From contig JASBSB010000001.1 of assembly GCA_030149205.1 (NCBI GenBank), forward strand, positions 134,357-198,356: a stretch of 64,000 bases of DNA, written 5' to 3'. This stretch comes from Candidatus Heimdallarchaeota archaeon. Lineage in GTDB: Archaea; Asgardarchaeota; Heimdallarchaeia; Heimdallarchaeales; Kariarchaeaceae. Below the pieces are notes generated by a model. That model was not told where the DNA came from, made no database searches, and was given only the letters and a program-made list of their open reading frames with translations. The translations under genes were made by a program, and so were the position numbers. Positions 1 to 55,739 of the stretch are shown here, piece by piece (the stretch's first letter is position 1; each line of letters opens with the position of its first letter).

Positions 1-114
1 TCAATAGTAGATTCTTATCAACAAAAAGCTGCGAAATTACCACTCCCTAAAATTCTGCTCAAGTTAATCAGTTTACTGATAGAGGGAGTACAAGCTAAGA
101 TAAAGATTCTATAA
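1..114 (+). CDS. 3' end of an ORF entering from upstream of the window (unknown product)
   Basis: Frame 1 is open from base 1 to TAA at 112-114 (...KLPLPKILLKLISLLIEGVQAKIKIL*). Only 37 codons are visible and no motif is recognised. Confidence 0.2.
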   Translation, partial: SIVDSYQQKAAKLPLPKILLKLISLLIEGVQAKIKIL

Positions 115-552
115 ATTATAATTGTAAAATCATATTTGCTCTAATGTCGATTTTTGATTTTAAATTTGTTCATGAAAGGTATTGTCCATTGTAACCAGAA
201 CATCCCAATGAATTTGGGATTAAAATGAAAGAAATAGTTATTGATCGTAAAAAGAGAAGAGAAGAGTTGAAAACCAATATGGGTAGTTATCTAATTTAGT
301 GGTTTAGGTAGTTTACTTTACTAAATTAATACAATATTACAGAAGATTACAAAGATTAGATGTTTTAATTGCAAATATCATAAAAAACATTTCATCTTAG
401 TAAATTTTTTAGTTTGTACTAAAGCAGAGTATTATTTCACAAAAAACAATCTAAGTTTGTTAGAACAGAAGATAAACAACCATTTTAAGGAAAAATATAT
501 GCAAAAAGAAATTTAAGTTCGGGTTAATTCTTTTCAATGACCTAATATAATT

Positions 553-1386
553 TCAAGTGTCAAACTCTAATAAATCTATAAAGTCACACAATTTACAAAA
601 TTGACATACCTTAGATGTGAAATCTTGTTCAGGTAACTTTTTTATATTATTTAATTGTTGTGATTTTTCGTATAAATTAGAAATCTCTTGCAATAATCCC
701 CCAATCGTTTTCTGGTCAATTTTTTGAATTTGATCAAATTTTGGTTTACTATACCAAAGTTCAAGATTTATTTGCTGGTCTGGAAAAGAACTGTATAATA
801 TTTCACCATAAATTTTTATTTGATTCTCATCTTCTAGTTTTGGAGTACCCGTTTTGTATTCAATTATTCGTAATCCACCTGTTTCAGAAAATGCTACCAA
901 GTCAATCTTACCACGTATTTGAAAATTGTGGTTAATTCTATTGATAACAGTAAATTCATCTTGAATTACAAGTGATGTTATCTCATTATTATTAATTGTA
1001 ACCAAACTTTCTGCCATAAGAGCAAGATTATGAAGTTGACTTGTAATTATATCAAAACTATTTGAAAATTCTTGGCGATGGTATTTCCATGGACCTGTAT
1101 TATTCATCCATATTTTTTTTATTGAATCTAATTCAATTTCCATTGATAATAATATTGCATCCTTTATATTCTTACTTTTACGGTGATAAAAAAATTCAAC
1201 ATTACTAAAATTTCTTAGGAATACTCTCTGTAAAATTAAATGTAAAAAATTTCCCGCGTATACAAATTTGTTAGGTGTAAATGGTATTTTTATCTCCTGT
1301 TGAGCATATAATACCTGTAACATTGTTCTTCTTTTACAATTAAATTCATTTACACTTGTAACTCCTAATCTTATTGATTTATTCAT
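553..1386 (-). CDS. Cas4-like PD-(D/E)xK nuclease with predicted 4-Cys (Fe-S) cluster; last gene of the Argonaute operon
   Basis: Motif order matches the Cas4/AddB family. N-terminal Cys (SVNEFNCKRR), GNFLH, GKIDLV...RIIEYKTG (D...ExK core), QIKIY (QxxxY) and C-terminal CQFCKLC. The ATG overlaps the upstream gene's stop by 8 nt (1379-1386). Confidence 0.8.
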   Translation of the reverse strand: MNKSIRLGVTSVNEFNCKRRTMLQVLYAQQEIKIPFTPNKFVYAGNFLHLILQRVFLRNFSNVEFFYHRKSKNIKDAILLSMEIELDSIKKIWMNNTGPWKYHRQEFSNSFDIITSQLHNLALMAESLVTINNNEITSLVIQDEFTVINRINHNFQIRGKIDLVAFSETGGLRIIEYKTGTPKLEDENQIKIYGEILYSSFPDQQINLELWYSKPKFDQIQKIDQKTIGGLLQEISNLYEKSQQLNNIKKLPEQDFTSKVCQFCKLCDFIDLLEFDT

Positions 1387-3148
1387 TTAATGTCCTCCTA
1401 TTTTCCAATAAAAATTCTGAAGAATAGTGCATAGCTAATCCAAGGATAAATGGAAATTTCGGTTTTGATAAACTGTATGGGTTTATGAAGGTTTGATAAA
1501 ATACATCTTGAAGTATTTCTTGGATATCATGCAATCCTTTGATTTTTTCAATAAATAATGGTTTGGGAATACCTTCAAATAAATCATTAGGATATCCATT
1601 TGTCATAATTAATGACTTGTTATCATTAATACTAACTGATAAGCCATCAATTGCTTTAGAAGTATTTTCGATCTGTCCATAAAGGATTGAGTGTGATGAA
1701 TTAACTAAAACTAAACAAAAATTATAATGGGAAATTTTATCAATTAAAGGTAATAACTGTCTGTCTGAAATTTGAATTAAGAAGTGGTCTGAATCACTAA
1801 AATTAATCAATTTTTGTAAGAAATCATTAATTTTAACTTTTTCATCGATATTTTTGTCTCTATCATTATAAAAAATATCATGTGAAATGTTAATATTTCC
1901 CTTATTAGAACTAACACCTGATAATATCATCCATTCTCCTGCATAATATGGTGTTATATGAAGAGCGATTATATTCTGATGATACTTCATTGATACATTT
2001 TGATATAATTTTCGAGTGTATCTAAATCTAATATTCAACCAAATTAGTTTTACAATTTTTCCCCAATCATCTTCTAATATTGTTGAAAATTTAATGATTT
2101 TATTTGGAATTACAATTTTTTCTTTAGTTTTATTGTATACATATCCTGAACCCTTTATTCTATCGTCGATACATATTATAGCTGCATCTGCCTCAAATTT
2201 ATGAAGCTTGGAGACATAATAGCTTTGAATTGTAATATTTAATCCTGTAACTTCTGCAAAATATGAAATAAAATTCTGAATCTTAATGGGGGTATTATCT
2301 GTCACAGATTTATCAATTAAAAATAATATATTGCTAATAAATGGATCAAATGAAATGTTATCCTCTAAAATATCTACTAATGGAGTAGTGTTTAAAGTTT
2401 CAATAGTGTTTGAATTGATTTTTATCGACGGACTATTTATTAAATCCCCTTTCAGATTCTCAATAACAGATAATCTTACATTTCCGATTTGATTTGTATT
2501 TATTACTTTGATTATTTTAAGGAATCTTTGTTCCACTGATTCAAAATTTCGATGTAATTGTAATACTTCTTTTTCTATTACACCAGGTATTAATTTATTA
2601 GATGTTAAGTTAAATGAATTTTCAGATATTTCATGTCTGGGATCATAAAAAACCATAACCTTATCATCTCGCATCTCATGGCATTCAAACCTTTCAGCTT
2701 GAAAAATCGAATACGTGAATGTTTCATTAAACTGTTCAACAGTTTTTTCTACGATAGGATTTATTCTTTGACTAGCTACTCCTTTAGATTTTCCAATAAA
2801 TGACAGTACCTCACTGGGTCTATAATAACCTTTGTTTGAAAATGTAATATATAAGGCTGTCAATACGAATATGTCAAGATTTTGTATTTCTTTCTTTTCA
2901 TTAATCTCTGTAGTACAGATTGAAACAGGGATTGTAGCAATCTCCAAATGTGAAGGTGGTTTTTGTGCGAAAAGGTAATATGAATCCTTTACATATATAA
3001 TTGTAAATGGAACATCTGATAAAAAATCACCATTTTTTAATGCAAAGGTCAGAAAGCTAAATTCATAGTTGTACTGCATGGAAACTTTGTACATTTTTAA
3101 TACAGCTGTATCAATTTGTGCTATCCAACCAAGTATTTTGCATATCAT
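1379..3148 (-). CDS. Second, highly diverged Argonaute-like protein (MID-PIWI-like C-terminal half; N-terminal ~300 aa unassigned)
   Basis: By eye, aa ~325-592 follow the MID->PIWI motif order. YVYNKTKEKIVIPNKII is MID-like; KLIWLNIRFRY sits at the aKlGG helix position; HFLIQISDRQL at the hRDG strand position. GIPKPLFIEKI is GtprP-like and the C-terminal KPKFPFILGLAMHYS sits at the lPxPxxYA position. The ATG at 3148-3146 overlaps the pAgo TGA at 3147-3145 (ATGA). The track's GTG start at 3157 is the alternative. Confidence 0.55.
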   Translation of the reverse strand: MICKILGWIAQIDTAVLKMYKVSMQYNYEFSFLTFALKNGDFLSDVPFTIIYVKDSYYLFAQKPPSHLEIATIPVSICTTEINEKKEIQNLDIFVLTALYITFSNKGYYRPSEVLSFIGKSKGVASQRINPIVEKTVEQFNETFTYSIFQAERFECHEMRDDKVMVFYDPRHEISENSFNLTSNKLIPGVIEKEVLQLHRNFESVEQRFLKIIKVINTNQIGNVRLSVIENLKGDLINSPSIKINSNTIETLNTTPLVDILEDNISFDPFISNILFLIDKSVTDNTPIKIQNFISYFAEVTGLNITIQSYYVSKLHKFEADAAIICIDDRIKGSGYVYNKTKEKIVIPNKIIKFSTILEDDWGKIVKLIWLNIRFRYTRKLYQNVSMKYHQNIIALHITPYYAGEWMILSGVSSNKGNINISHDIFYNDRDKNIDEKVKINDFLQKLINFSDSDHFLIQISDRQLLPLIDKISHYNFCLVLVNSSHSILYGQIENTSKAIDGLSVSINDNKSLIMTNGYPNDLFEGIPKPLFIEKIKGLHDIQEILQDVFYQTFINPYSLSKPKFPFILGLAMHYSSEFLLENRRTLNE

Positions 3149-5346
3149 ATAAACCACGGCTTTTTAAAATGGAAATTCGCCATATCTTTAGGAATTTTGC
3201 CCATACCTCTACTTGATGAATGAATTGGAACTGGGAGCTTAGTTTCAATTCTATCCCATCCAGAATAACAATGGCATAAATCAAAAATCTCATAAAGAAG
3301 TTTTTCAAATCTCTCCTCATCACATTTAATATTTCTTAATACAATTGGATTTTGAGTCCCAACATTTCCTTGTGTTGAAATTAAACCAACTTCAGTCTTA
3401 GATATCCAATAAAAAGTCCCAATATGTGGCCGAAATATTCTATTTTTTTCATTCTTTGAATAAATACGAAGTGGAGACGAAGAAATTACCTCAACAATTG
3501 AATGTTTTAAATTAAGAATATTAAGGCTATGTTCAATATCTTTTAATTCTCTATCATAAAATTTTCCATTCTTTATTAAAACTACTTCATCATTATTTTT
3601 AGTGAGTAACTTAAAAGCACTTTCAAAATTTTGTTGACGATTTTCGACGTTATCAGAAATGTAGTATCCTCCACTAAATCTACCCGAATTATAATATGAA
3701 TTTAGTAACCCCCGATATTTAGTTGCATCTAGTGAGATGTTTTGAGATTGCAAACCAATATATTTTACAAAACCATTTTCATTAACATTCAGTAACCATG
3801 AATGTAGACCTAACTTTGCAATTATACCCAAAAATATATTCCGAAAATACCCATTTTGTCTTGATTCAATTTTATCCTTCAGAACATTAAAATTAATTCC
3901 CTGATGAGGATATTCATTTTTTATTAATTCACCAGATACTAATTCTTTGAATTCACTATCTACACTATCATTATCAGAATGAACCACTATGATACAATTG
4001 TTGTTATTTACAAATTTATCCATATATTCTGATAAGTCTCCCTTTTTTTCGAGAAGTTTTATTTCATCAAACTCAATTTCTGTACTAAGAAATTGTTGAA
4101 GAATGATTATTTCTTTTGTTTCTTTTAGAAATGGCTTTTTTATTAATCCTAATTGATATTCATTATACTCTCGATATAATAAAATCGATATTTTTAACTT
4201 TTCGGGACCCTTATCAAATATCCCATATTTTTGAATTTCTAATGCTGGGTAATCAGTCCTATGTGAATTACCAATAATGTAATTATTCAAATCTAATAGT
4301 CCAGAGTTACATGAGTTCCAAGATTGAAAGTTTCTAATTGGATTTAGAGTTATTGAACCCACGGTTAAATTACCTATAAAACGCATATAATTCTGTGATC
4401 GTTTAAATCTAATCGGAGGGTCAGGCCTAATTTGTTTCATCAGGGCACCTCTATCATGATAATCCAAATGTGAAAATGTTGGTAATTCTCGAATTCTTTC
4501 TAAAGGGTATGAATAATACTCATCATTATCATTTTTATAGAATGATAACGCAATAGGTGGTTCATCTTGTATAAATTCACCAAGCACGGGTGCTCTAGGA
4601 CAAATGAATTTTTGTTTGTGAAACTCAATTATATCTAAATTATCAATTATTACCTCTGAAGGTTTCTTATTTACAATTTTTTTCAATTTCACAGTCTTCC
4701 CAGTTCCAGCATATCTACAGTTTGAGAAAGGATCCTGTTTTTCTGGACATTGAATAATTGGACAAGTATCTACATAATAATTTTTCGGATTTATTTCTAT
4801 ACTAGAATATGAAAGTTTCTCTCTCAATGATACGGATGAATGAAATTTATATTTGAGATCAACTATTACTCCAACTTCACCATTTTTAAGCAAAATTGGA
4901 GCATATTGAAATCCTGGGAAAACATCAATTTTTCCAAAACCCTCGATGGTCTCAGGGCTAGAAACCTCAAATATTGAATTGTAAGTTTCTTGTATCTTCC
5001 ATAATTTATTACTATGTCGTAAATTGACAGCAATAGCATCTCCAATAATTCTTTTCAATAGATCTAAATCATCATCATTTTGGGCTGAAACTAATCTACT
5101 AGTAGGAGGAAATAAATTTACTGCCAAATCTTTTTCGAAATCATCTTCAAGTAATTCGGTTGAAATTATCTTATCTCCAAATTGAATTATAATTTTACGT
5201 CGATTATCTGGAACTTTCCTAAGATTAAGTAATACATCACCAAGTTTTCGAAAGTTTATTTCTTCTTTTTTCCTATATTCAAAGACTGTAACTTTATCTT
5301 TGAATGGTGTTTTTTCAAATTTTAAAATATTAGTTATTATTTCCAT
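3145..5346 (-). CDS. Long prokaryotic Argonaute (N-PAZ-MID-PIWI), predicted catalytically inactive
   Basis: N-terminal TNILKF; PAZ-like block DVFPGFQYAPILLKNGEVGVIVDLKYKF. The MID/PIWI junction reads YPHQGINFNVLKD...FRNIFLGIIAKLGLHSWLL. The PIWI C-terminus reads GTQNPIVL...ETKLPVPIHSS. The hRDG strand reads IKNG (nt 3565-3576), so the third catalytic Asp is Asn. Confidence 0.85.
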   Translation of the reverse strand: MEIITNILKFEKTPFKDKVTVFEYRKKEEINFRKLGDVLLNLRKVPDNRRKIIIQFGDKIISTELLEDDFEKDLAVNLFPPTSRLVSAQNDDDLDLLKRIIGDAIAVNLRHSNKLWKIQETYNSIFEVSSPETIEGFGKIDVFPGFQYAPILLKNGEVGVIVDLKYKFHSSVSLREKLSYSSIEINPKNYYVDTCPIIQCPEKQDPFSNCRYAGTGKTVKLKKIVNKKPSEVIIDNLDIIEFHKQKFICPRAPVLGEFIQDEPPIALSFYKNDNDEYYSYPLERIRELPTFSHLDYHDRGALMKQIRPDPPIRFKRSQNYMRFIGNLTVGSITLNPIRNFQSWNSCNSGLLDLNNYIIGNSHRTDYPALEIQKYGIFDKGPEKLKISILLYREYNEYQLGLIKKPFLKETKEIIILQQFLSTEIEFDEIKLLEKKGDLSEYMDKFVNNNNCIIVVHSDNDSVDSEFKELVSGELIKNEYPHQGINFNVLKDKIESRQNGYFRNIFLGIIAKLGLHSWLLNVNENGFVKYIGLQSQNISLDATKYRGLLNSYYNSGRFSGGYYISDNVENRQQNFESAFKLLTKNNDEVVLIKNGKFYDRELKDIEHSLNILNLKHSIVEVISSSPLRIYSKNEKNRIFRPHIGTFYWISKTEVGLISTQGNVGTQNPIVLRNIKCDEERFEKLLYEIFDLCHCYSGWDRIETKLPVPIHSSSRGMGKIPKDMANFHFKKPWFI

Positions 5347-5348
5347 AT

Positions 5349-6035
5349 TTATCTCTCTTTGTTTTTAAGTAACTCAAATGAACTTATCACCGCAAGGTCT
5401 GTGTTAACCGTTTTTGTTAGTATTTTCTTACAAGCTGAATGCATTATGAAAAATCCTGTACCTAACGCAGTTTTCATTAACTCGTTTTTTGCGGATTGCA
5501 ATAAAATATCATTAACTATTATTTCAGGATGAACTGATGTTGAAAAATATACTTGGATTGTAAATGAACTCGTATCATCCAAAAACAAAAAAGAATTTAT
5601 TCCATCTTTTTTCCAATTACACTTCAGTGAAAAAAGATCTTCAATTCTTGAATTAAACCCGTCTAATCTATTAAATTCTTCGCTAATTTCTTTGATAGGT
5701 AGTATAATTGAAGATTTTAACAAATAATTCCCCATAACTCTCAGGTGCCAATTAGAATTAAATTTATCTACGTCTAATACTTGTATAGTTTGATTGGATT
5801 GATACAATCCTGTATCTTCTTCATAAGAAAGCAGATTATCTTTAGTTAATTGGCTAAGTATCATTTCAACTTCTACATTTGGTATATGATCAAAATATAG
5901 ATTACTTCTCCCAGAACTCATCCAAATATGTTTCACTATATTTGATTTTTTTGCACTACCATAATCTCGCAGGAAATCAAGAATTAATTTTTTAATTGCT
6001 TTCTCCATTGAATCTTTAGGTTTCATATCAATCAC
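5349..6035 (-). CDS. Winged-helix (wHTH)-like N-terminal domain protein with uncharacterised C-terminal domain; Argonaute-operon gene 2
   Basis: The N-terminal ~75 aa (EKAIKKLILDFLRDYGSAKKSNIVKHI...ILSQLTKDNLLSYEEDTGLY) has a wHTH-like helix/wing pattern. The GTG at 6035 overlaps the upstream TGA (GTGA); an ATG at 6026 is the alternative. Only 2 nt separate its stop from the pAgo ATG. Confidence 0.5.
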   Translation of the reverse strand: MIDMKPKDSMEKAIKKLILDFLRDYGSAKKSNIVKHIWMSSGRSNLYFDHIPNVEVEMILSQLTKDNLLSYEEDTGLYQSNQTIQVLDVDKFNSNWHLRVMGNYLLKSSIILPIKEISEEFNRLDGFNSRIEDLFSLKCNWKKDGINSFLFLDDTSSFTIQVYFSTSVHPEIIVNDILLQSAKNELMKTALGTGFFIMHSACKKILTKTVNTDLAVISSFELLKNKER

Positions 6036-7072
6036 CTGACTATCTCCTTAATCTTTGACTTTAGTTCTTCAGAATTATCTACAATTACAACATTCTTAAA
6101 ATTGTAGCGTATTTCATCATAATATTGATTAGAATTGTTTAAAATAATAAAATGGGTAATATCAATAAACGAAGTAAAAGCAAAATTAATTTCATCTACC
6201 TCTTCAGAAGGTAAATGCATATCTACAATCCATAATCCAATTTTTAGGTTATTCAATTCAATGTAAATGGGAATTGTTATACTCTCATTCTGACTATTTG
6301 TAATCTTTATTTCCTTACGGATAAAAATTGGATTGAATTCTTGAATTACATTGAGGAAGCTTTGACCAATTTTCTCCTGTAAATACTTGAAATCATCACT
6401 GAAAGCCGGAATTCCAGATATTTCCTCAAAATCTTTTGCTGTGTATTTTGTTCTCATTTGAGAGCTTGATTTTGTAATTATTTGTTCTATTATATCTTGA
6501 AATATTTGTTTAGGATTACGAATTAGAATATTATATTTTGATAGCTCTTCAAGACATTTACTCTTAATATTATCGAATGGACTTGATGGATGATTGGGGG
6601 CAAAATAATTCCAAACAAATTCTATTTTTTTGAATACTTCAATTTTTTTCTGATCTGTGAATTTTCCTTTGAAAAGAGAATTTATTCTACCTTTATCAGC
6701 ATTTGAAATTTCTAAATTGTTCTGAAGGTTTTGTTGAATTTGCAGTAGTTCAGTAATTTCTGCATTCCAACCCGATTGAGTTGTAAATCGAAATTTAATT
6801 TCTTTTCCAGATAAATTTTTTTCATCTTCCTGTATGAACTTTGTTAAAATTGGTATCAAACTTGATTTATTCCAGACACTATGTTCTTTTTTCTTTACCT
6901 GTTCAAATATAAAGTACCCAGTATATTCTATGTTAATATCTTCTAATTCATCATCCTTTGATTCAAATTCAATTGATAAAATCTGATCTCCTTTAATGAA
7001 TTCAATGACTCTTAGTACTCCAACCATATTTTGGTAATTAATACCATAGTTTGTATCAATTCCACTTGGCAA
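6032..7072 (-). CDS. DUF4297 / Cap4-type dsDNA-endonuclease-like (PD-(D/E)xK fold) N-terminal domain protein; first gene of the Argonaute operon
   Basis: The N-terminus (YGINYQNMVGVLRVIEF...IEFESKDDELEDINIEY...FEQVKKK) matches the G-x-x-YQ ... E..D.D ... QxK pattern of DUF4297 nuclease domains. The C-terminal ~220 aa are unassigned. A TTG start at 7072 is needed to include the YQ motif. Confidence 0.6.
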   Translation of the reverse strand: MPSGIDTNYGINYQNMVGVLRVIEFIKGDQILSIEFESKDDELEDINIEYTGYFIFEQVKKKEHSVWNKSSLIPILTKFIQEDEKNLSGKEIKFRFTTQSGWNAEITELLQIQQNLQNNLEISNADKGRINSLFKGKFTDQKKIEVFKKIEFVWNYFAPNHPSSPFDNIKSKCLEELSKYNILIRNPKQIFQDIIEQIITKSSSQMRTKYTAKDFEEISGIPAFSDDFKYLQEKIGQSFLNVIQEFNPIFIRKEIKITNSQNESITIPIYIELNNLKIGLWIVDMHLPSEEVDEINFAFTSFIDITHFIILNNSNQYYDEIRYNFKNVVIVDNSEELKSKIKEIVR

Positions 7073-7091
7073 TATTTTAAATCTAGTTTTC

Positions 7092-7102
7092 TTTATAATA
7101 AT
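7092..7102 (-). promoter_or_regulatory. TATA-box-like element upstream of the Argonaute operon
   Basis: The minus strand reads attattataaa about 25 nt upstream of the TTG start at 7072, a spacing compatible with a leaderless or short-leader archaeal transcript. TATA-like strings are common in this AT-rich DNA. Confidence 0.3.
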
Positions 7103-7454
7103 TCAGAGATATTGTAATAATCAAAATGAAAGTTTTAAAAATTTAAATATACAATATGTGATATCAAAAAAATTTTATTGCAAAGACTTAAAATAAATGA
7201 GAACTCGAAGCTGGATAAAGACCTATAACCGTGATTTCCTTGAAATATCTCGGATATAATCAAGAAAATAAATTAGTAAATCTAAATCTTGATTGAAATA
7301 TTCTTCGTCTACTAATTATTCTTATTATATTGTTATCTTATAAGAGTTGGAAGTACACAGATATTCGACTTGCTAAGTCAGTATACAATATATATTCAAC
7401 CAGTATCTTTCAACTATGACTACCAATTCCAAAAAAAAAATGAAATTGAATGAA

Positions 7455-8597
7455 TTAATCCAGGTGTTTATTGTTTTTCTTAATATGCTGCAATGTATCT
7501 TCATTGTGAGCTGCCAAATACTCAAAAGAATTGTCATACATAGTTTGATTTAATCTATGAATAATGTCACTTTTTACGAAAATACTATATTCAACAGGAG
7601 TTTTGTTATCAATTGTAGATAAATTATTTGTTATGTATTTCATAAAATTTTCCAGATTTAACAATCCTATCGCAATTGTGGGATTAATTGGTATGTAATA
7701 TTCTAACATAACTGATACTCCATTTACTATTAACTCTGCTATAATCAATGGATTGTCTGAAGTAATTAATTCTACAGGGTGGTCTTGAGGATTTAGTCCA
7801 GATAGATTAATTATGATGATCGGCCTGAGTTCAGTATGTTTTAGTGGTTTATCAACTGTTTCATCAGGCAATTTTTGTAAAACTTCTCTGATTTTATTTT
7901 CAATTTCGATTTGACTATCTTTATGATCTAAAGATTTCTTTATTCCGATACTAATATTTTTACTTATTAAGGATATCATACCTTGTAAGTCGTTTTTTAA
8001 AAAATACCCCTGTGCTTTTTGTAAAAACACCTCGTCATATTTAATATTACTTTGATATAGAATCTCCTGTGTTTCAGTGCTAATAAAACTAAAATCCAAT
8101 ATCTTACTAAATTTCATGTAATTTCTAAATGAAGGTGTTCTAAACGTTAGATGATTAATAAAATCACATAAAATTTCGAAATTTGATTGCAAATGCATAG
8201 CATCTATGAAAGTCTCCGCAAATTTTTTTATATCTAATGATTTTTTGAATATGTTATCTCTATTACTAGGGTTGTAAATTTTTATTTTCTCAGTTTGAAA
8301 ATTTAATTTTTCTAATCCAGTAAAGAACTTAGCGACTTTATCCTCAGCTTCACTCATCAAATCGTCAATCAGTTCCTCTAAAAACCTTGGAGAATAAAAA
8401 CTTTGATTAATCTTTTTTTTGTCAATATCCCCAGTCTTTTTGTTCAACCTAAATACTCTTTTCTTTTTGTTATCTTTTTCAAAATCCTCCTCAATAACAA
8501 AATTTCGTAGAAACCACTGAGGAATATAATGTTGTTTTCTGCCTGACATGAACATAACTGTGGAATAATTGTATATTATAGTATTTGAACGAGACAT
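7455..8597 (-). CDS. DUF4238-like protein (function unknown)
   Basis: The N-terminal motif GRKQHYIPQWFLRNF matches the H-Y-[IV]-P-Q-x-[FY]-L-x-x-F signature of DUF4238. The rest is unassigned. It lies in the same low-GC block as the Argonaute operon. Confidence 0.55.
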   Translation of the reverse strand: MSRSNTIIYNYSTVMFMSGRKQHYIPQWFLRNFVIEEDFEKDNKKKRVFRLNKKTGDIDKKKINQSFYSPRFLEELIDDLMSEAEDKVAKFFTGLEKLNFQTEKIKIYNPSNRDNIFKKSLDIKKFAETFIDAMHLQSNFEILCDFINHLTFRTPSFRNYMKFSKILDFSFISTETQEILYQSNIKYDEVFLQKAQGYFLKNDLQGMISLISKNISIGIKKSLDHKDSQIEIENKIREVLQKLPDETVDKPLKHTELRPIIIINLSGLNPQDHPVELITSDNPLIIAELIVNGVSVMLEYYIPINPTIAIGLLNLENFMKYITNNLSTIDNKTPVEYSIFVKSDIIHRLNQTMYDNSFEYLAAHNEDTLQHIKKNNKHLD

Positions 8598-22121: not shown

Positions 22122-22265
22122 ATGACAGAATATAGATGTTTACGCTGTAGAACAAGGATCAATCCCACAGAACTTGTTGATGAGAAAATTCAATGCACAT
22201 ACTGTGGGTACAGAATTCTTGAAAAAACCAGACCTGCAGTTATTCATCGAATTAGAACTGATTAA
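22122..22265 (+). CDS. rpoP: DNA-directed RNA polymerase subunit P (Rpo12 / RPABC4 homologue)
   Basis: 47-aa ORF absent from the supplied track (below its size cut-off): MTEYRCLRCRTRINPTELVDEKIQCTYCGYRILEKTRPAVIHRIRTD. CxxC-x15-CxxCG-x-RIL-x-K-x-R is the RpoP zinc-ribbon pattern. Confidence 0.75.
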   Translation: MTEYRCLRCRTRINPTELVDEKIQCTYCGYRILEKTRPAVIHRIRTD

Positions 22266-23017
22266 ACACCTTCTCTGAAATTAGATAAAATATCATTTAC
22301 AACTTTCCATTCATCTGAATCGAGCCAAGGTGCTGACAATATTATTCCATCAACATTTAACTGGTTTAGATCTAACAATCTGTTTTTAAGATTATTTGTT
22401 GTCAGTTCAATCTGAGTTCTATCTCTTTTACCTACCATTCTTTTAACCCACCCATTATACTTTTTAAAAGATCTAGGGGGAAGATCCTTAAGCAATAGGG
22501 GTGCATATACCATTATTTTATTGAAAGAGTACCCTTCAGTAATTTTTTTGACTTCAACTGGTGATGACGTATTCAATACTACACCAAACCCCTGATCAGA
22601 AGACCATTTTAATACCTTCGAAGACATAGAACCCACTAAGACTTTATCTTTTGGGAGGCTCTGAATAATTGAATCTAGGGAGTAAATAAGTTTTTGACTA
22701 GGCGAGGAAGGAAACATTTCCAGTTTCTTCAAACGTTCAAAATCTCCTAAGCCCAATCCTAAATACATGTCCAGTGAATTTACGGTGCTTGAATACTGTT
22801 TTAGCAGGTTGGTGTTGTTTGCAAGTATTATTGCTGATGCAATAGCTACTCCTACTGGCTGTAAAGTCTGGGATAACCTTTTTCTTTCGATAATCGCTTT
22901 GATGACCTCCTCCTCAGAAGAAGAGAGAGATGTCCCAAACCAAACCCTATCGTGCACCAAGTCCTTGGGTAGATTGGAGCCAATAGATTGGTTTATCCCA
23001 ATTTCTAACCGTGGCAT
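22262..23017 (-). CDS. Hypothetical protein (possibly a TIM-barrel/luciferase-like fold; not supported by clear motifs)
   Basis: 251-aa ORF whose stop overlaps the rpoP stop region by 4 nt (convergent). No diagnostic motif. Confidence 0.4.
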   Translation of the reverse strand: MPRLEIGINQSIGSNLPKDLVHDRVWFGTSLSSSEEEVIKAIIERKRLSQTLQPVGVAIASAIILANNTNLLKQYSSTVNSLDMYLGLGLGDFERLKKLEMFPSSPSQKLIYSLDSIIQSLPKDKVLVGSMSSKVLKWSSDQGFGVVLNTSSPVEVKKITEGYSFNKIMVYAPLLLKDLPPRSFKKYNGWVKRMVGKRDRTQIELTTNNLKNRLLDLNQLNVDGIILSAPWLDSDEWKVVNDILSNFREGV

Positions 23018-23023
23018 GAAGAT

Positions 23024-23350
23024 CTATTTTCGTATCAAATCAATACTTTCCCTTTCAAAACCAATTTCTTCCAATAAGTCGAGAATTCTAAACTCATGAT
23101 TTCCCTGAAGCTCTATTAAATCTCCTTTTACGGTTCCCCCACAAGCGAGCTTTGTTTTAAGGGTGTTGGCAATTTGTTTTAAATTGAATTCTTTGGGATC
23201 CAGACCTGAAATTACAGTATAGATCTTTCCCCATTTTCTTTTTTCTAGGACTACCTTTAACCTTGCTTCACCTTTTGCGACTTCATCACAAATGCACAAT
23301 TCTTCTGGTAATCCACATACTGAGCAAGTTTCTACTTCATCATCGAATAT
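23024..23350 (-). CDS. Translation initiation factor aIF1 (SUI1 family); start codon unresolved
   Basis: SUI1 core: KRKWGKIYTVISGL...LKTKLACGGTVKGDLIELQGNH. The Zn-knuckle ETCSVCGLPEELCICDE extends upstream of the TTG at 23299. The 5' limit is set at the in-frame ATA at 23350; the in-frame stop is at 23357-23359. Confidence 0.85.
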   Translation of the reverse strand: MFDDEVETCSVCGLPEELCICDEVAKGEARLKVVLEKRKWGKIYTVISGLDPKEFNLKQIANTLKTKLACGGTVKGDLIELQGNHEFRILDLLEEIGFERESIDLIRK

Positions 23351-23467
23351 TGTTGTTCAACCTCTTATAATTTGTTTCCATCTTTTGATGTTAAATCATA
23401 GTTACAGTAATCTATAATAAAGATTACCTCTATGCACTTTATATAAGCCAAAAAAGTGAATAATTTT

Positions 23468-24445
23468 TCAGATTGTGGTTACCTTCGCGCCTGACTCTTC
23501 GATGATCATTGTATGTTCAAATTGAGAAATAACAGCCTTTGAATCTGTTGCTCTAAGAACATGATATTCTTGTATCCCTGCAACTTTTCGAAGTTCCATC
23601 ATCCCCATCTTTAGTTCTGGTCTGGTGACACCCTTTTCAATAAGCCATCGTTCTGCAAAGGGAAGCCCTTGAAACTCATGAATAGCAAGCTTTTGAATTT
23701 TCTTAGCTGGTTTTGTTCTCAAAGGAACTTTGAATGGTGCAACTCTGAAAATGTTAACTTTGGAATAGTCCTGCCCAAGACCTCCTGGGTGAGTGCTAAC
23801 AAAAGGTTCAATTGCGAAGACCTCACCTAACTCAACTTTATCCCCTTTTTCTACCCTCACATTCGGAACAGTTTTCCCAGCATGAACTGCGAATCTTTCC
23901 ACTGAATGACCTCTTAATTCTCTAATTGGATAAAATCCTTCATCTGTTACAATTTTCTCAATAATACCACCGATTGACCCAGTGTCAGCCCCTGGTCTCA
24001 TAAACTGAATCGCTTCATCCAATGCCTTTTGATTTACTTCCAGAAGTTTGGAATAACTTCCATCCAGGTCCACTGAAGTTGCTGTATCGGAAATATACCC
24101 TTCAAGTGATACACCTACATCAATCTTTACCACTCCTTTCTTAGGTATCTTCAAATCATCTTCTGGAGTACCTGTGTAATGAGCAGCCACATCATTAATC
24201 CCAATATTAATGGGAAAAGCTGGCTTTGCCTCATTCTCTCTAATGAATGAATCTGCGATATTACAAAGATCGAGTACGGATGCATTAGGTTTTACCTCTA
24301 ATGCCATTTTATCCCGCAATTGTTTTCCAAGATCACCAGCTTTTAACCAAAGTTCATGTTCTTCCTCCTTAGAGTAGTCTTTTACCTTAAGGCTGGGATG
24401 TTGAACCTCATTTTGTAGGGCTAATGCTCTCTTGATGCTATACAT
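23468..24445 (-). CDS. map: Methionine aminopeptidase, type 2
   Basis: Pita-bread fold metal-ligand blocks are present: VKIDVGV, GYISDTA, LRGHSV, FAIEPF and QFEHT. Confidence 0.9.
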   Translation of the reverse strand: MYSIKRALALQNEVQHPSLKVKDYSKEEEHELWLKAGDLGKQLRDKMALEVKPNASVLDLCNIADSFIRENEAKPAFPINIGINDVAAHYTGTPEDDLKIPKKGVVKIDVGVSLEGYISDTATSVDLDGSYSKLLEVNQKALDEAIQFMRPGADTGSIGGIIEKIVTDEGFYPIRELRGHSVERFAVHAGKTVPNVRVEKGDKVELGEVFAIEPFVSTHPGGLGQDYSKVNIFRVAPFKVPLRTKPAKKIQKLAIHEFQGLPFAERWLIEKGVTRPELKMGMMELRKVAGIQEYHVLRATDSKAVISQFEHTMIIEESGAKVTTI

Positions 24446-54899: not shown

Positions 54900-55166
54900 A
54901 CTAATTCAAACCTCCGTGTAATCTGAACTATAAAAAATTACTCTATTCGAAGATAAGAATTTCTAAAATTATTTAGCAAGCTTCACAGACTTAGTAACTA
55001 TTTTAAATTGACTAAAAATCACCTACAATAAACTTTTATAGCCAATTATGATAAATACATTTGTTTACAATAGAGGTATGTAACTATTCTTTGTCCTAAA
55101 TGTCAGTCATATTTTGTAAGATACCCATGTCCGGAATGCGGAGCCACTGAGGCAGATGCAGACAAA

Positions 55167-55739
55167 TTGATGGAACAATCCGTTGATGAAGCAATAGAGA
55201 CTAAAGCCGAAGAAGTGGAACATGTTTTAACACCAAAGGAATATCTTGCCAAAAAAAAGCAGGAAGCTAACCCAGAGCCTGAAGAACGATTGCTTAAGCC
55301 TTCTGAATTGATGAAAACAAAAGAAGATATGCCAGAGCCTGAAGAATCAAAGGAAATTCAAAAACCAACTGCCAAAGAACTACCAGTGAAACCGTCAGAT
55401 GTTTATCAGAAAGCTATGGAAGAAAAATATGGGAAAGATGAGAAAAATCTCAAACCCTCTGAACTTATCAAATCACAAGACTCAAGGTTTGGAACCCCAG
55501 AATCAACTTCAAAGGATACGCTAAAGAAACCATCAGAAATTGCCAAGCAAGGTGTGATACAAAGACCCGCTCAACCTCCAAAAAAATATGACCCCGTCAT
55601 TACAGATACGCGATATATTGATGGAGACTTACCAAACCATATTGAGAGAAAAGATGGGGAAACTGATGAAGAATACAAAGAAAGAGTAAAGGACACTCTA
55701 CAAGAAGTGGTTTCATTACTTGAAAAGCTGTTAGATTAG
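55167..55739 (+). CDS. Lys/Glu/Pro-rich protein with four KPS[ED] repeats; probable N-terminal Zn-ribbon encoded upstream of the first canonical start
   Basis: The track ORF starts at TTG 55167. The in-frame upstream codons 55086-55166 encode ILCPKCQSYFVRYPCPECGATEADADK. Repeats: LKPSELMK, VKPSDVYQ, LKPSELIK and KKPSEIAK. Confidence 0.55.
   Translation: MMEQSVDEAIETKAEEVEHVLTPKEYLAKKKQEANPEPEERLLKPSELMKTKEDMPEPEESKEIQKPTAKELPVKPSDVYQKAMEEKYGKDEKNLKPSELIKSQDSRFGTPESTSKDTLKKPSEIAKQGVIQRPAQPPKKYDPVITDTRYIDGDLPNHIERKDGETDEEYKERVKDTLQEVVSLLEKLLD

Follow-up and report, generated by a model that had tools for sequence, protein, structure and literature searches.

The window analyzed here is a stretch of 64,000 nucleotides (nt) from a Candidatus Heimdallarchaeota archaeon of the Kariarchaeaceae (contig JASBSB010000001.1), a member of the group of archaea most closely related to eukaryotes. 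The gene in question encodes the SUI1-family translation initiation factor aIF1 and lies on the minus strand, where the proposed coding sequence occupies 23024..23350 (108 codons, from an ATA to the stop codon TAG at 23026-23024). Read directly, the minus strand from 23359 to 23288 is TGA ACA ACA ATA TTC GAT GAT GAA GTA GAA ACT TGC TCA GTA TGT GGA TTA CCA GAA GAA TTG TGC ATT TGT, which translates as stop-T-T-I-F-D-D-E-V-E-T-C-S-V-C-G-L-P-E-E-L-C-I-C. The initial annotation had remarked that no ATG, GTG or TTG occurs between the in-frame TGA (23357..23359, two codons upstream of the ATA) and the TTG at 23297..23299, that an ATA is present at 23350-23348, and that the start-less stretch supplies the first CxxC of a zinc knuckle. 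The direct read bore out the coordinates and the reading, with none of the three canonical start codons among the 19 codons concerned, and translation combined with the homology to aIF1 bore out the assignment of the CxxC. For aIF1, the list of open reading frames (ORFs) returned by a mechanical finder holds solely a 91-residue ORF that begins at the TTG (23024..23299). By a rough estimate, the chance of 19 codons without a canonical start in AT-rich DNA is about 0.4, which is not unusual; the start-less stretch matters because it is homologous to the N-terminus of aIF1, not because it is improbable.

The identity of the product is supported by profile and structure comparisons. The protein matched the Pfam family SUI1 (PF01253) with an E-value of 3e-19 and a score of 69.7 bits, above the cut-off of 25.5, and the NCBIfam model PRK00939 with 132.1 bits (cut-off 98), in an alignment that begins at residue 9 and covers profile positions 3-100 of 102. 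Methanocaldococcus jannaschii aIF1 (4mo0/5jb3) was matched with E=4.5e-29, residues 7-105 of the query aligning with chain residues 3-101 from E-T-C onward. The two proteins share the SUI1 fold, which is also that of Pyrococcus abyssi aIF1, about 50% identity as judged by eye over residues 7-105, and the same zinc knuckle: the segment C-S-V-C-G-L-P-E-E-L-C-I-C (23288..23326, minus strand) fits the consensus CX2CGLPX3C(phi)C, which is present in 64% of archaeal aIF1 proteins and absent from about 36% (PMC6237735). The difference lies at the extreme N-terminus, since the M. jannaschii and P. abyssi proteins begin with M-P-E-I-C at an ordinary start, whereas the window protein starts at a non-AUG codon and has an extension, (M/I)-F-D-D-E-V, that is specific to the clade. 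Its best protein matches came from metagenome-assembled genomes of Heimdallarchaeota/Kariarchaeaceae, the closest at 84% identity.

We compared the 5′ end of the gene in 18 distinct lineages of the Heimdall/Kariarchaeaceae clade, namely the window and 17 relatives, which share no more than 77% nucleotide identity over the last 240 nt; the loci L002 and L163, which are 96% identical, were counted as one lineage. DNA of the relatives' loci was obtained from genome contigs, from metagenome contigs and by exact protein look-up, and the region was then aligned. The metagenome scan contributed a single clade member (L081), and the locus of P0012 partly duplicates L002. The codon that precedes the invariant Phe-Asp-Asp is ATA in 11 lineages, the window included, ATT in four, TTG in two and GTG in one. 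AUA or AUU thus occupies the start position in 14 of the 17 diverged relatives, and ATG, ATC, TTA, CTN, GTA and GTT are found there in no lineage. Two control columns behave as ordinary codons do. The conserved I/V inside the CxC is encoded by ATT (4), ATC (4), ATA (6), GTC (1), GTT (2) and GTA (1), and the leucine that is TTG in the window by TTG (4), CTT (5), CTC (1), TTA (7) and CTA (1). The set {ATA, ATT, TTG, GTG} makes up a fraction of 0.367 of the I/L/V/M codons in the long ORFs of the window, and the probability that all 18 start columns would be drawn from it is about 1.5e-8 if the lineages are taken as independent.

The position of stop codons around this column narrows the choice of start further. 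A stop abuts the candidate start directly in L168 (TAG ATA TTC GAC GAT) and in L174 (TAA GTG TTT GAT GAT); a single codon separates the two in L005 and L177, and the window, L001 and L081 have two codons between them. From the upstream stop to the first Cys codon, 13 of the 18 lineages contain no ATG, GTG or TTG, and in three lineages a non-conserved ATG or TTG lies 15-18 codons upstream, beyond the presumptive ribosome-binding site described below. Measured from the equivalent codon, the aIF1 ORF is 107-110 codons long in the 18 lineages. The invariant residues F, D, C, C, G, C and C vary synonymously (TTC/TTT, GAT/GAC, TGT/TGC, GGN), and because silent change is free at invariant positions, the segment must be translated in the aIF1 frame. 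With its four Cys residues invariant and synonymous changes present, the segment upstream of the TTG is under purifying selection.

A Shine-Dalgarno (SD)-like GAGGT is positioned at 23360..23364 on the minus strand, 9 nt upstream of the ATA, with the spacing measured from the G that is aligned to the last G of GGAGG. A motif of this kind lies 8-12 nt upstream of the start position in all 18 lineages; it is GAGGT in 14 of them and AGGAG or a weaker variant in the rest. Farther upstream in the window, TTTATTATA (23413..23421, minus strand) is a candidate TATA box; transcription directed by it would produce a leader of about 40 nt in which the SD is included. We conclude that the start of aIF1 is very probably the ATA at 23350-23348, with little doubt left by the sequence comparison. 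The first of two options raised in the initial annotation, initiation at this near-cognate codon, has thus gained strong support from the codon column, from the abutting stops in L168 and L174, and from the SD 8-12 nt upstream. A change of the genetic code in which AUA specifies Met was also considered and ruled out, as ATA is freely used at conserved Ile/Val positions.

Genes for aIF1 outside the clade were examined by a hidden Markov model search over the stop-to-stop ORFs in 177 fetched aIF1 loci. An ATG was present within 12 codons of the knuckle in 141 loci, a GTG within 12 codons in five and a TTG in two; three loci had a distant canonical start only, two had no knuckle, and 24 had no canonical start at all. 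In Hadesarchaea (five distinct loci, from L053, L098, L099, L130, L133, L155 and L156), the aIF1 gene reads ...GGAGGTGCRTGA(G/T)AG CTG CCA GAG GTN TGY, or 'M'-P-E-V-C-K-V-C-G-L-P, with CTG at the usual position of Met. The CTG comes 0-1 codons after an upstream in-frame reading frame, possibly the preceding gene, has terminated, and the SD is located inside the 3′ end of that frame. TAG directly abuts the CTG in three Hadesarchaea loci; in two of these, a GTG that is not conserved stands one codon ahead of the first Cys codon, and they were therefore tallied among the loci with a nearby GTG. In the Hod/Wukongarchaeia, the arrangement GGAAGGTG-TTATGTT-CTG is conserved in three loci (L014, L045 and L100), and an ATA farther downstream has become GTA in one of them. 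A further lineage (L132) has AGGAGG, 9 nt and CTG. All of these CTG-start genes have an SD (GGAGGTG, AGGTG or AGGAGG) 9-10 nt upstream. An SD accompanies the near-cognate start in 22 of 24 loci, as compared with 17 of 128 distinct loci with an ATG start (Fisher p = 6e-14); in the other 111 ATG-start loci, no SD match of 5 nt was present within 22 nt.

Comparison of the 18 lineages suggests that the weak start codon is a conserved and selected feature of the Heimdall/Kariarchaeaceae clade. We favor selection to keep the codon weak over neutrality because ATG, which is a single transition away from ATA, is absent in 18 lineages, and because the phenomenon recurs on aIF1 with a different near-cognate codon in other phyla. 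The non-optimal start site is thus conserved, as it is in the known autoregulated genes for fidelity factors: ATG is absent from the start column, and CTG takes its place in the other groups.

The interpretation that we favor is that the aIF1 gene is intact and would be translated from AUA 23350-23348 on a leadered mRNA. The GAGGU 9 nt upstream would pair with the 3′ end of 16S rRNA, thereby setting the 30S P site over the AUA, and the initiator Met-tRNA would pair with the AUA despite the mismatch at the third position. The product would be a 108-residue aIF1 that begins with Met-Phe-Asp-Asp and contains the complete CxxC...CxC zinc knuckle; we infer both the identity of the first residue, Met, and the transcript's 5′ end. 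It is known that aIF1 sits near the P site and destabilizes initiation complexes on non-AUG codons. By homology, the window protein would be expected to bind the 30S subunit and to discriminate against non-AUG codons as well. The gene could then be subject to negative feedback, in that plentiful aIF1 would reject its own AUA start and scarce aIF1 would let the AUA through. Sulfolobus solfataricus aIF1 rejects AUU in vitro (as summarized in PMC4705826; PMC6237735), and near-cognate initiation sites have been detected in Haloferax by ribosome profiling (PMC7261190).

Two known systems operate on such a principle, since autoregulation through the AUU of infC and through the poor start context of eIF1 is established (PMC6237735, PMC4705826). 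Like aIF1, IF3, the product of infC, is a factor that rejects non-canonical starts, and its own start is an AUN near-cognate codon behind an SD, so that the feedback logic would be identical. In Escherichia coli, AUA, AUU and CUG form the class of IF3-sensitive codons. The differences are that the folds of IF3 and aIF1 are not related and the two proteins occur in different domains of life, that infC is fixed at AUU whereas the aIF1 codon varies (AUA, AUU, UUG and GUG here, CUG in other clades), and that infC feedback was demonstrated genetically whereas the aIF1 case is known from the conserved weak start. The second system, eIF1 (SUI1), belongs to the orthologous family PF01253, has the same role in start-site stringency, and likewise has a conserved suboptimal start of its own. 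The eIF1 gene keeps AUG and weakens the flanking context used in scanning (an autoregulated AUG in poor Kozak context; Ivanov et al. 2010, as cited in PMC6237735 and PMC4705826), unlike the gene described here, in which the SD is strong and the codon is weakened. The arrangement would thus represent the principle of infC and eIF1 in the third domain, implemented as a strong SD combined with a near-cognate codon. The parallel had already been drawn in the initial annotation; it is plausible and has been strengthened by finding aIF1 genes that start with CTG in another two or three lineages of archaea. The part that concerns feedback stays an inference, and weak starts are not exclusive to aIF1 in this genome.

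Feedback by aIF1 would be the most likely purpose of the AUA start, and by analogy with infC and eIF1 we give it about equal weight for and against. The explanation in its entirety, with the AUA start, the SD, the conserved weakness of the codon and the feedback, we consider reasonably probable. More tentatively, and with the balance tilting slightly against it, we suggest that near-cognate aIF1 starts (AUA/AUU/CUG behind a strong SD) constitute a true autoregulatory circuit that evolved on separate occasions in three or more archaeal lineages, the Heimdall-group relatives of eukaryotes among them. If this is true, then all three domains of life have converged on a start-codon proofreader that polices its own start. 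In bacteria (infC AUU) and eukaryotes (eIF1 poor context), a fidelity factor senses its own level through a poor start, and a conserved AUA/AUU/CUG on aIF1 would supply the archaeal case, Asgard archaea included. The AUA start of aIF1 would also offer a testable handle on the stringency of start selection in archaea. We found no mention of a non-canonical start or of autoregulation of an aIF1 gene in the literature searched, which dealt with aIF1 structure and function, archaeal initiation, recoding, the initiation factors of Haloferax and archaeal ribosome profiling, and of which the coverage was incomplete, so that absence is not proven.

A serious, if unlikely, rival to the feedback explanation is that AUA is the real start and that no feedback exists. 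SD-led genes would tolerate any near-cognate start in this case, and the codon would either set a low constitutive level of aIF1 or drift neutrally. Relevant to this question is a second probable non-canonical start in the window, which emerged from a targeted scan for an SD followed after 6-11 nt by a start-like codon and a long ORF. The gene concerned (55071-55739, plus strand) has an ATT at 55086-55088, with GAGGT (55073-55077) 8 nt and a TAG four codons ahead of it. The ORF opens with I-L-C-P-K-C-Q-S-Y-F-V-R-Y-P-C-P-E-C-G, and the ATT aligns, residue for residue, with the Met of 11 of 11 homologues, the N-termini of which read M-x-C-x-x-C-G-x-x-F-V-R-Y-P-C-P-x-C-G. These homologues are hypothetical proteins of Kariarchaeaceae without a Pfam match. 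The publicly called protein (P0121, 189 residues) starts at ATG 55170, 28 codons later, and has lost the zinc ribbon. An ATG-TAA mini-ORF directly follows the SD of this gene.

Start usage elsewhere in the window provides the background for both genes. In many window genes, the ATG is preceded at a distance of about 25-30 nt by a TATA-like A/T box and an SD is missing (for example, upstream of 24445, 20378, 27557 and 58802), and these genes look leaderless. A clear GGAGG or GAGGT precedes only about 10 genes, the starts of which include ATG, GTG, TTG, ATA and ATT; in those with ATG or GTG, GGAGG is followed by 7-11 nt to the start.

Four points weigh against the explanation as a whole or against the numbers that support it. 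First, given the ATT of the gene at 55086, aIF1 appears not to be the only gene of this genome with a weak start behind an SD. Second, ATG, GTG and TTG are about equally frequent as starts of the SD-led genes in the window, and the lineage may simply tolerate weak starts behind an SD. Third, the 18 lineages are related phylogenetically, so that p-values overstate their independence. Fourth, in L001, the closest relative, an ATG is present in frame two codons upstream, only 3 nt after GAGGT, and an AUG start is thus not absolutely excluded in every lineage. On the other hand, neutral drift fails to explain why ATG is missing from 18 lineages while ATA, ATT, TTG and GTG interchange, and it also fails to explain why the same design is seen with CTG on the aIF1 genes of Hadesarchaea and Hod/Wukongarchaeia. 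In addition, the other members of the 55086 family all begin with Met and the ATT is not conserved; for aIF1, by contrast, it is the weak codon that has been conserved. We therefore retain selection on the aIF1 start as the preferred reading. If the aIF1 start does form an autoregulatory circuit, the presence of a further gene with an ATT start raises the possibility of a small regulon of weak-start genes in these archaea, which would be tuned by the level of aIF1.

Another scenario accepts the AUA start and attributes its use to termination-reinitiation after an upstream ORF (translational coupling) rather than to direct SD-guided binding of the 30S subunit. A 13-codon upstream ORF in the window (ATG at 23381-23379 to TGA at 23342-23340, minus strand) spans both the SD and the ATA, and in Hadesarchaea, where the CTG closely follows the stop of an upstream in-frame frame, coupling could contribute. 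In the Heimdall clade, however, we found no conserved upstream ORF. The ORF of the window is not conserved in relatives, the upstream ATG ORFs vary in presence, frame and end point, and three of the 18 lineages have none within 90 nt. The stop codon of the preceding methionine aminopeptidase gene is about 115 nt upstream of the aIF1 start, and the leader showed no significant RNA structure, its minimum free energy being matched by shuffled sequences (z = 0.13). Scans of the window for Rfam families and tRNAs gave no matches. Coupling as the route to the AUA is thus highly improbable, and direct SD-guided initiation is preferred.

We give slightly less credence still to a start at the TTG (23299-23297), which would yield the 91-residue aIF1 without the first CxxC and make the upstream similarity a decaying remnant. 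The TTG is the only canonical start in frame and is the one that mechanical ORF finding returns, and the roughly 36% of archaeal aIF1 proteins that have no knuckle (PMC6237735) provide a precedent for such a protein. Alignment with relatives at the nucleotide level, a check proposed with the initial annotation, did not bear out its refuting condition that orthologues start at the TTG-equivalent position and lack the first CxxC. All relatives keep the four Cys residues, and the TTG is an internal, ordinary Leu codon in a column that reads TTG, CTT, CTC, TTA or CTA. Moreover, no SD precedes the TTG, the segment upstream of it is under purifying selection, and a half knuckle consisting of the CxC alone could not bind zinc.

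The least probable alternative, which was the second option of the initial annotation, is that translation starts at the out-of-frame ATGATG (23343-23338, minus strand) and that M-M-K-V-E-T-C is restored either by a base that sequencing or assembly has lost or by a programmed -1 frameshift. The ATGATG is indeed present, a 1-nt insertion would yield a plausible N-terminus, and an earlier annotation of S. solfataricus aIF1 had a -1 frameshift interrupting the gene (PMC8211752). This option is nevertheless refuted by 17 other lineages in independent assemblies, which retain I/L/V-F-D-D ahead of the ATGs in the aIF1 frame, followed by the in-frame CxxC. As it stands, the out-of-frame sequence ATG ATG AAG TAG (23332..23343, minus strand) encodes M-M-K-stop and is an automatic by-product of GAT followed by G in the Asp-Asp codons GAT GAT. 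In relatives, the ORFs opened by the out-of-frame ATGs are between 1 and 54 codons long, with no junction, conserved end or slippery site in common, and the ATGs are about 16-19 nt from the SD. The S. solfataricus gene proved to be full-length on re-sequencing, which suggests an earlier sequencing error (PMC8211752) and counts against a frameshift here. Classification as a programmed frameshift gene of the prfB type was rejected, as no shift site is conserved and the aIF1 frame is conserved upstream of the ATGs.

The public annotation of aIF1 genes reflects the difficulty of their starts. Calls for the closest orthologues are inconsistent. Some begin with MTIFDD or MFDDD, many are truncated (MPEDLCIC, MDLCIC, MAKTE..., VVLEKRK), and some carry non-conserved N-terminal extensions. 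The NCBI Prokaryotic Genome Annotation Pipeline (PGAP), in calls named aIF1 or 'YciH', assigned a CTG start to the Wukongarchaeota protein P0134 (MSTQQAICKVCGLP; DNA of L045) and an ATA start to the Hodarchaeota protein P0030 (MCKVCGLP; DNA of L014). These calls disagree, CTG versus ATA, in near-identical DNA, and for two Hod proteins ATA was called instead of the conserved CTG; other pipelines cut the Wukong/Hod aIF1 to 64-93 residues. Non-canonical aIF1 starts are therefore already implicit in some annotations, as unremarked pipeline decisions. The aIF1 of the window was not found in a collection of 15 billion proteins in the three N-terminal forms tried (TTG, ATA and ACA starts). A gene 32 kb from it is present in NCBI at 100% identity, so that in the deposited genome the window's aIF1 has apparently been left without annotation or been given different boundaries. 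Standard gene callers cut this essential gene short, extend it wrongly or overlook it, which affects both aIF1 alignments and estimates of completeness for Heimdall-, Hod-/Wukong- and Hadesarchaea.

The methionine aminopeptidase-like gene upstream of aIF1 (Peptidase_M24; Pfam 8.4e-26) occupies 23468..24445 on the minus strand and starts with ATG, both in the window and in the seven of seven relatives checked. Downstream of aIF1 are a gene for a class-II aminoacyl-tRNA synthetase (GlyRS-like) and an RpoP-like zinc ribbon, and the order methionine aminopeptidase, aIF1 and synthetase recurs in most of the relatives for which flanking gene calls are available. A 251-residue ORF without a Pfam match (22262-23017, minus strand) starts 7 nt after the aIF1 stop and is probably co-transcribed with aIF1; in relatives, the gene at this position differs or is on the other strand. 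Small GTPase genes are typical of Asgard genomes. Such genes, with Arf/Ras/Roc Pfam matches, adjoin the pair formed by the aminopeptidase and aIF1 in L167, L168, L172, L174 and L176. Finally, the G+C content of window positions 1-8000 is 27.5-27.9%, as compared with 33-38% in the rest of the window, and this part may be a foreign or differently constrained segment.

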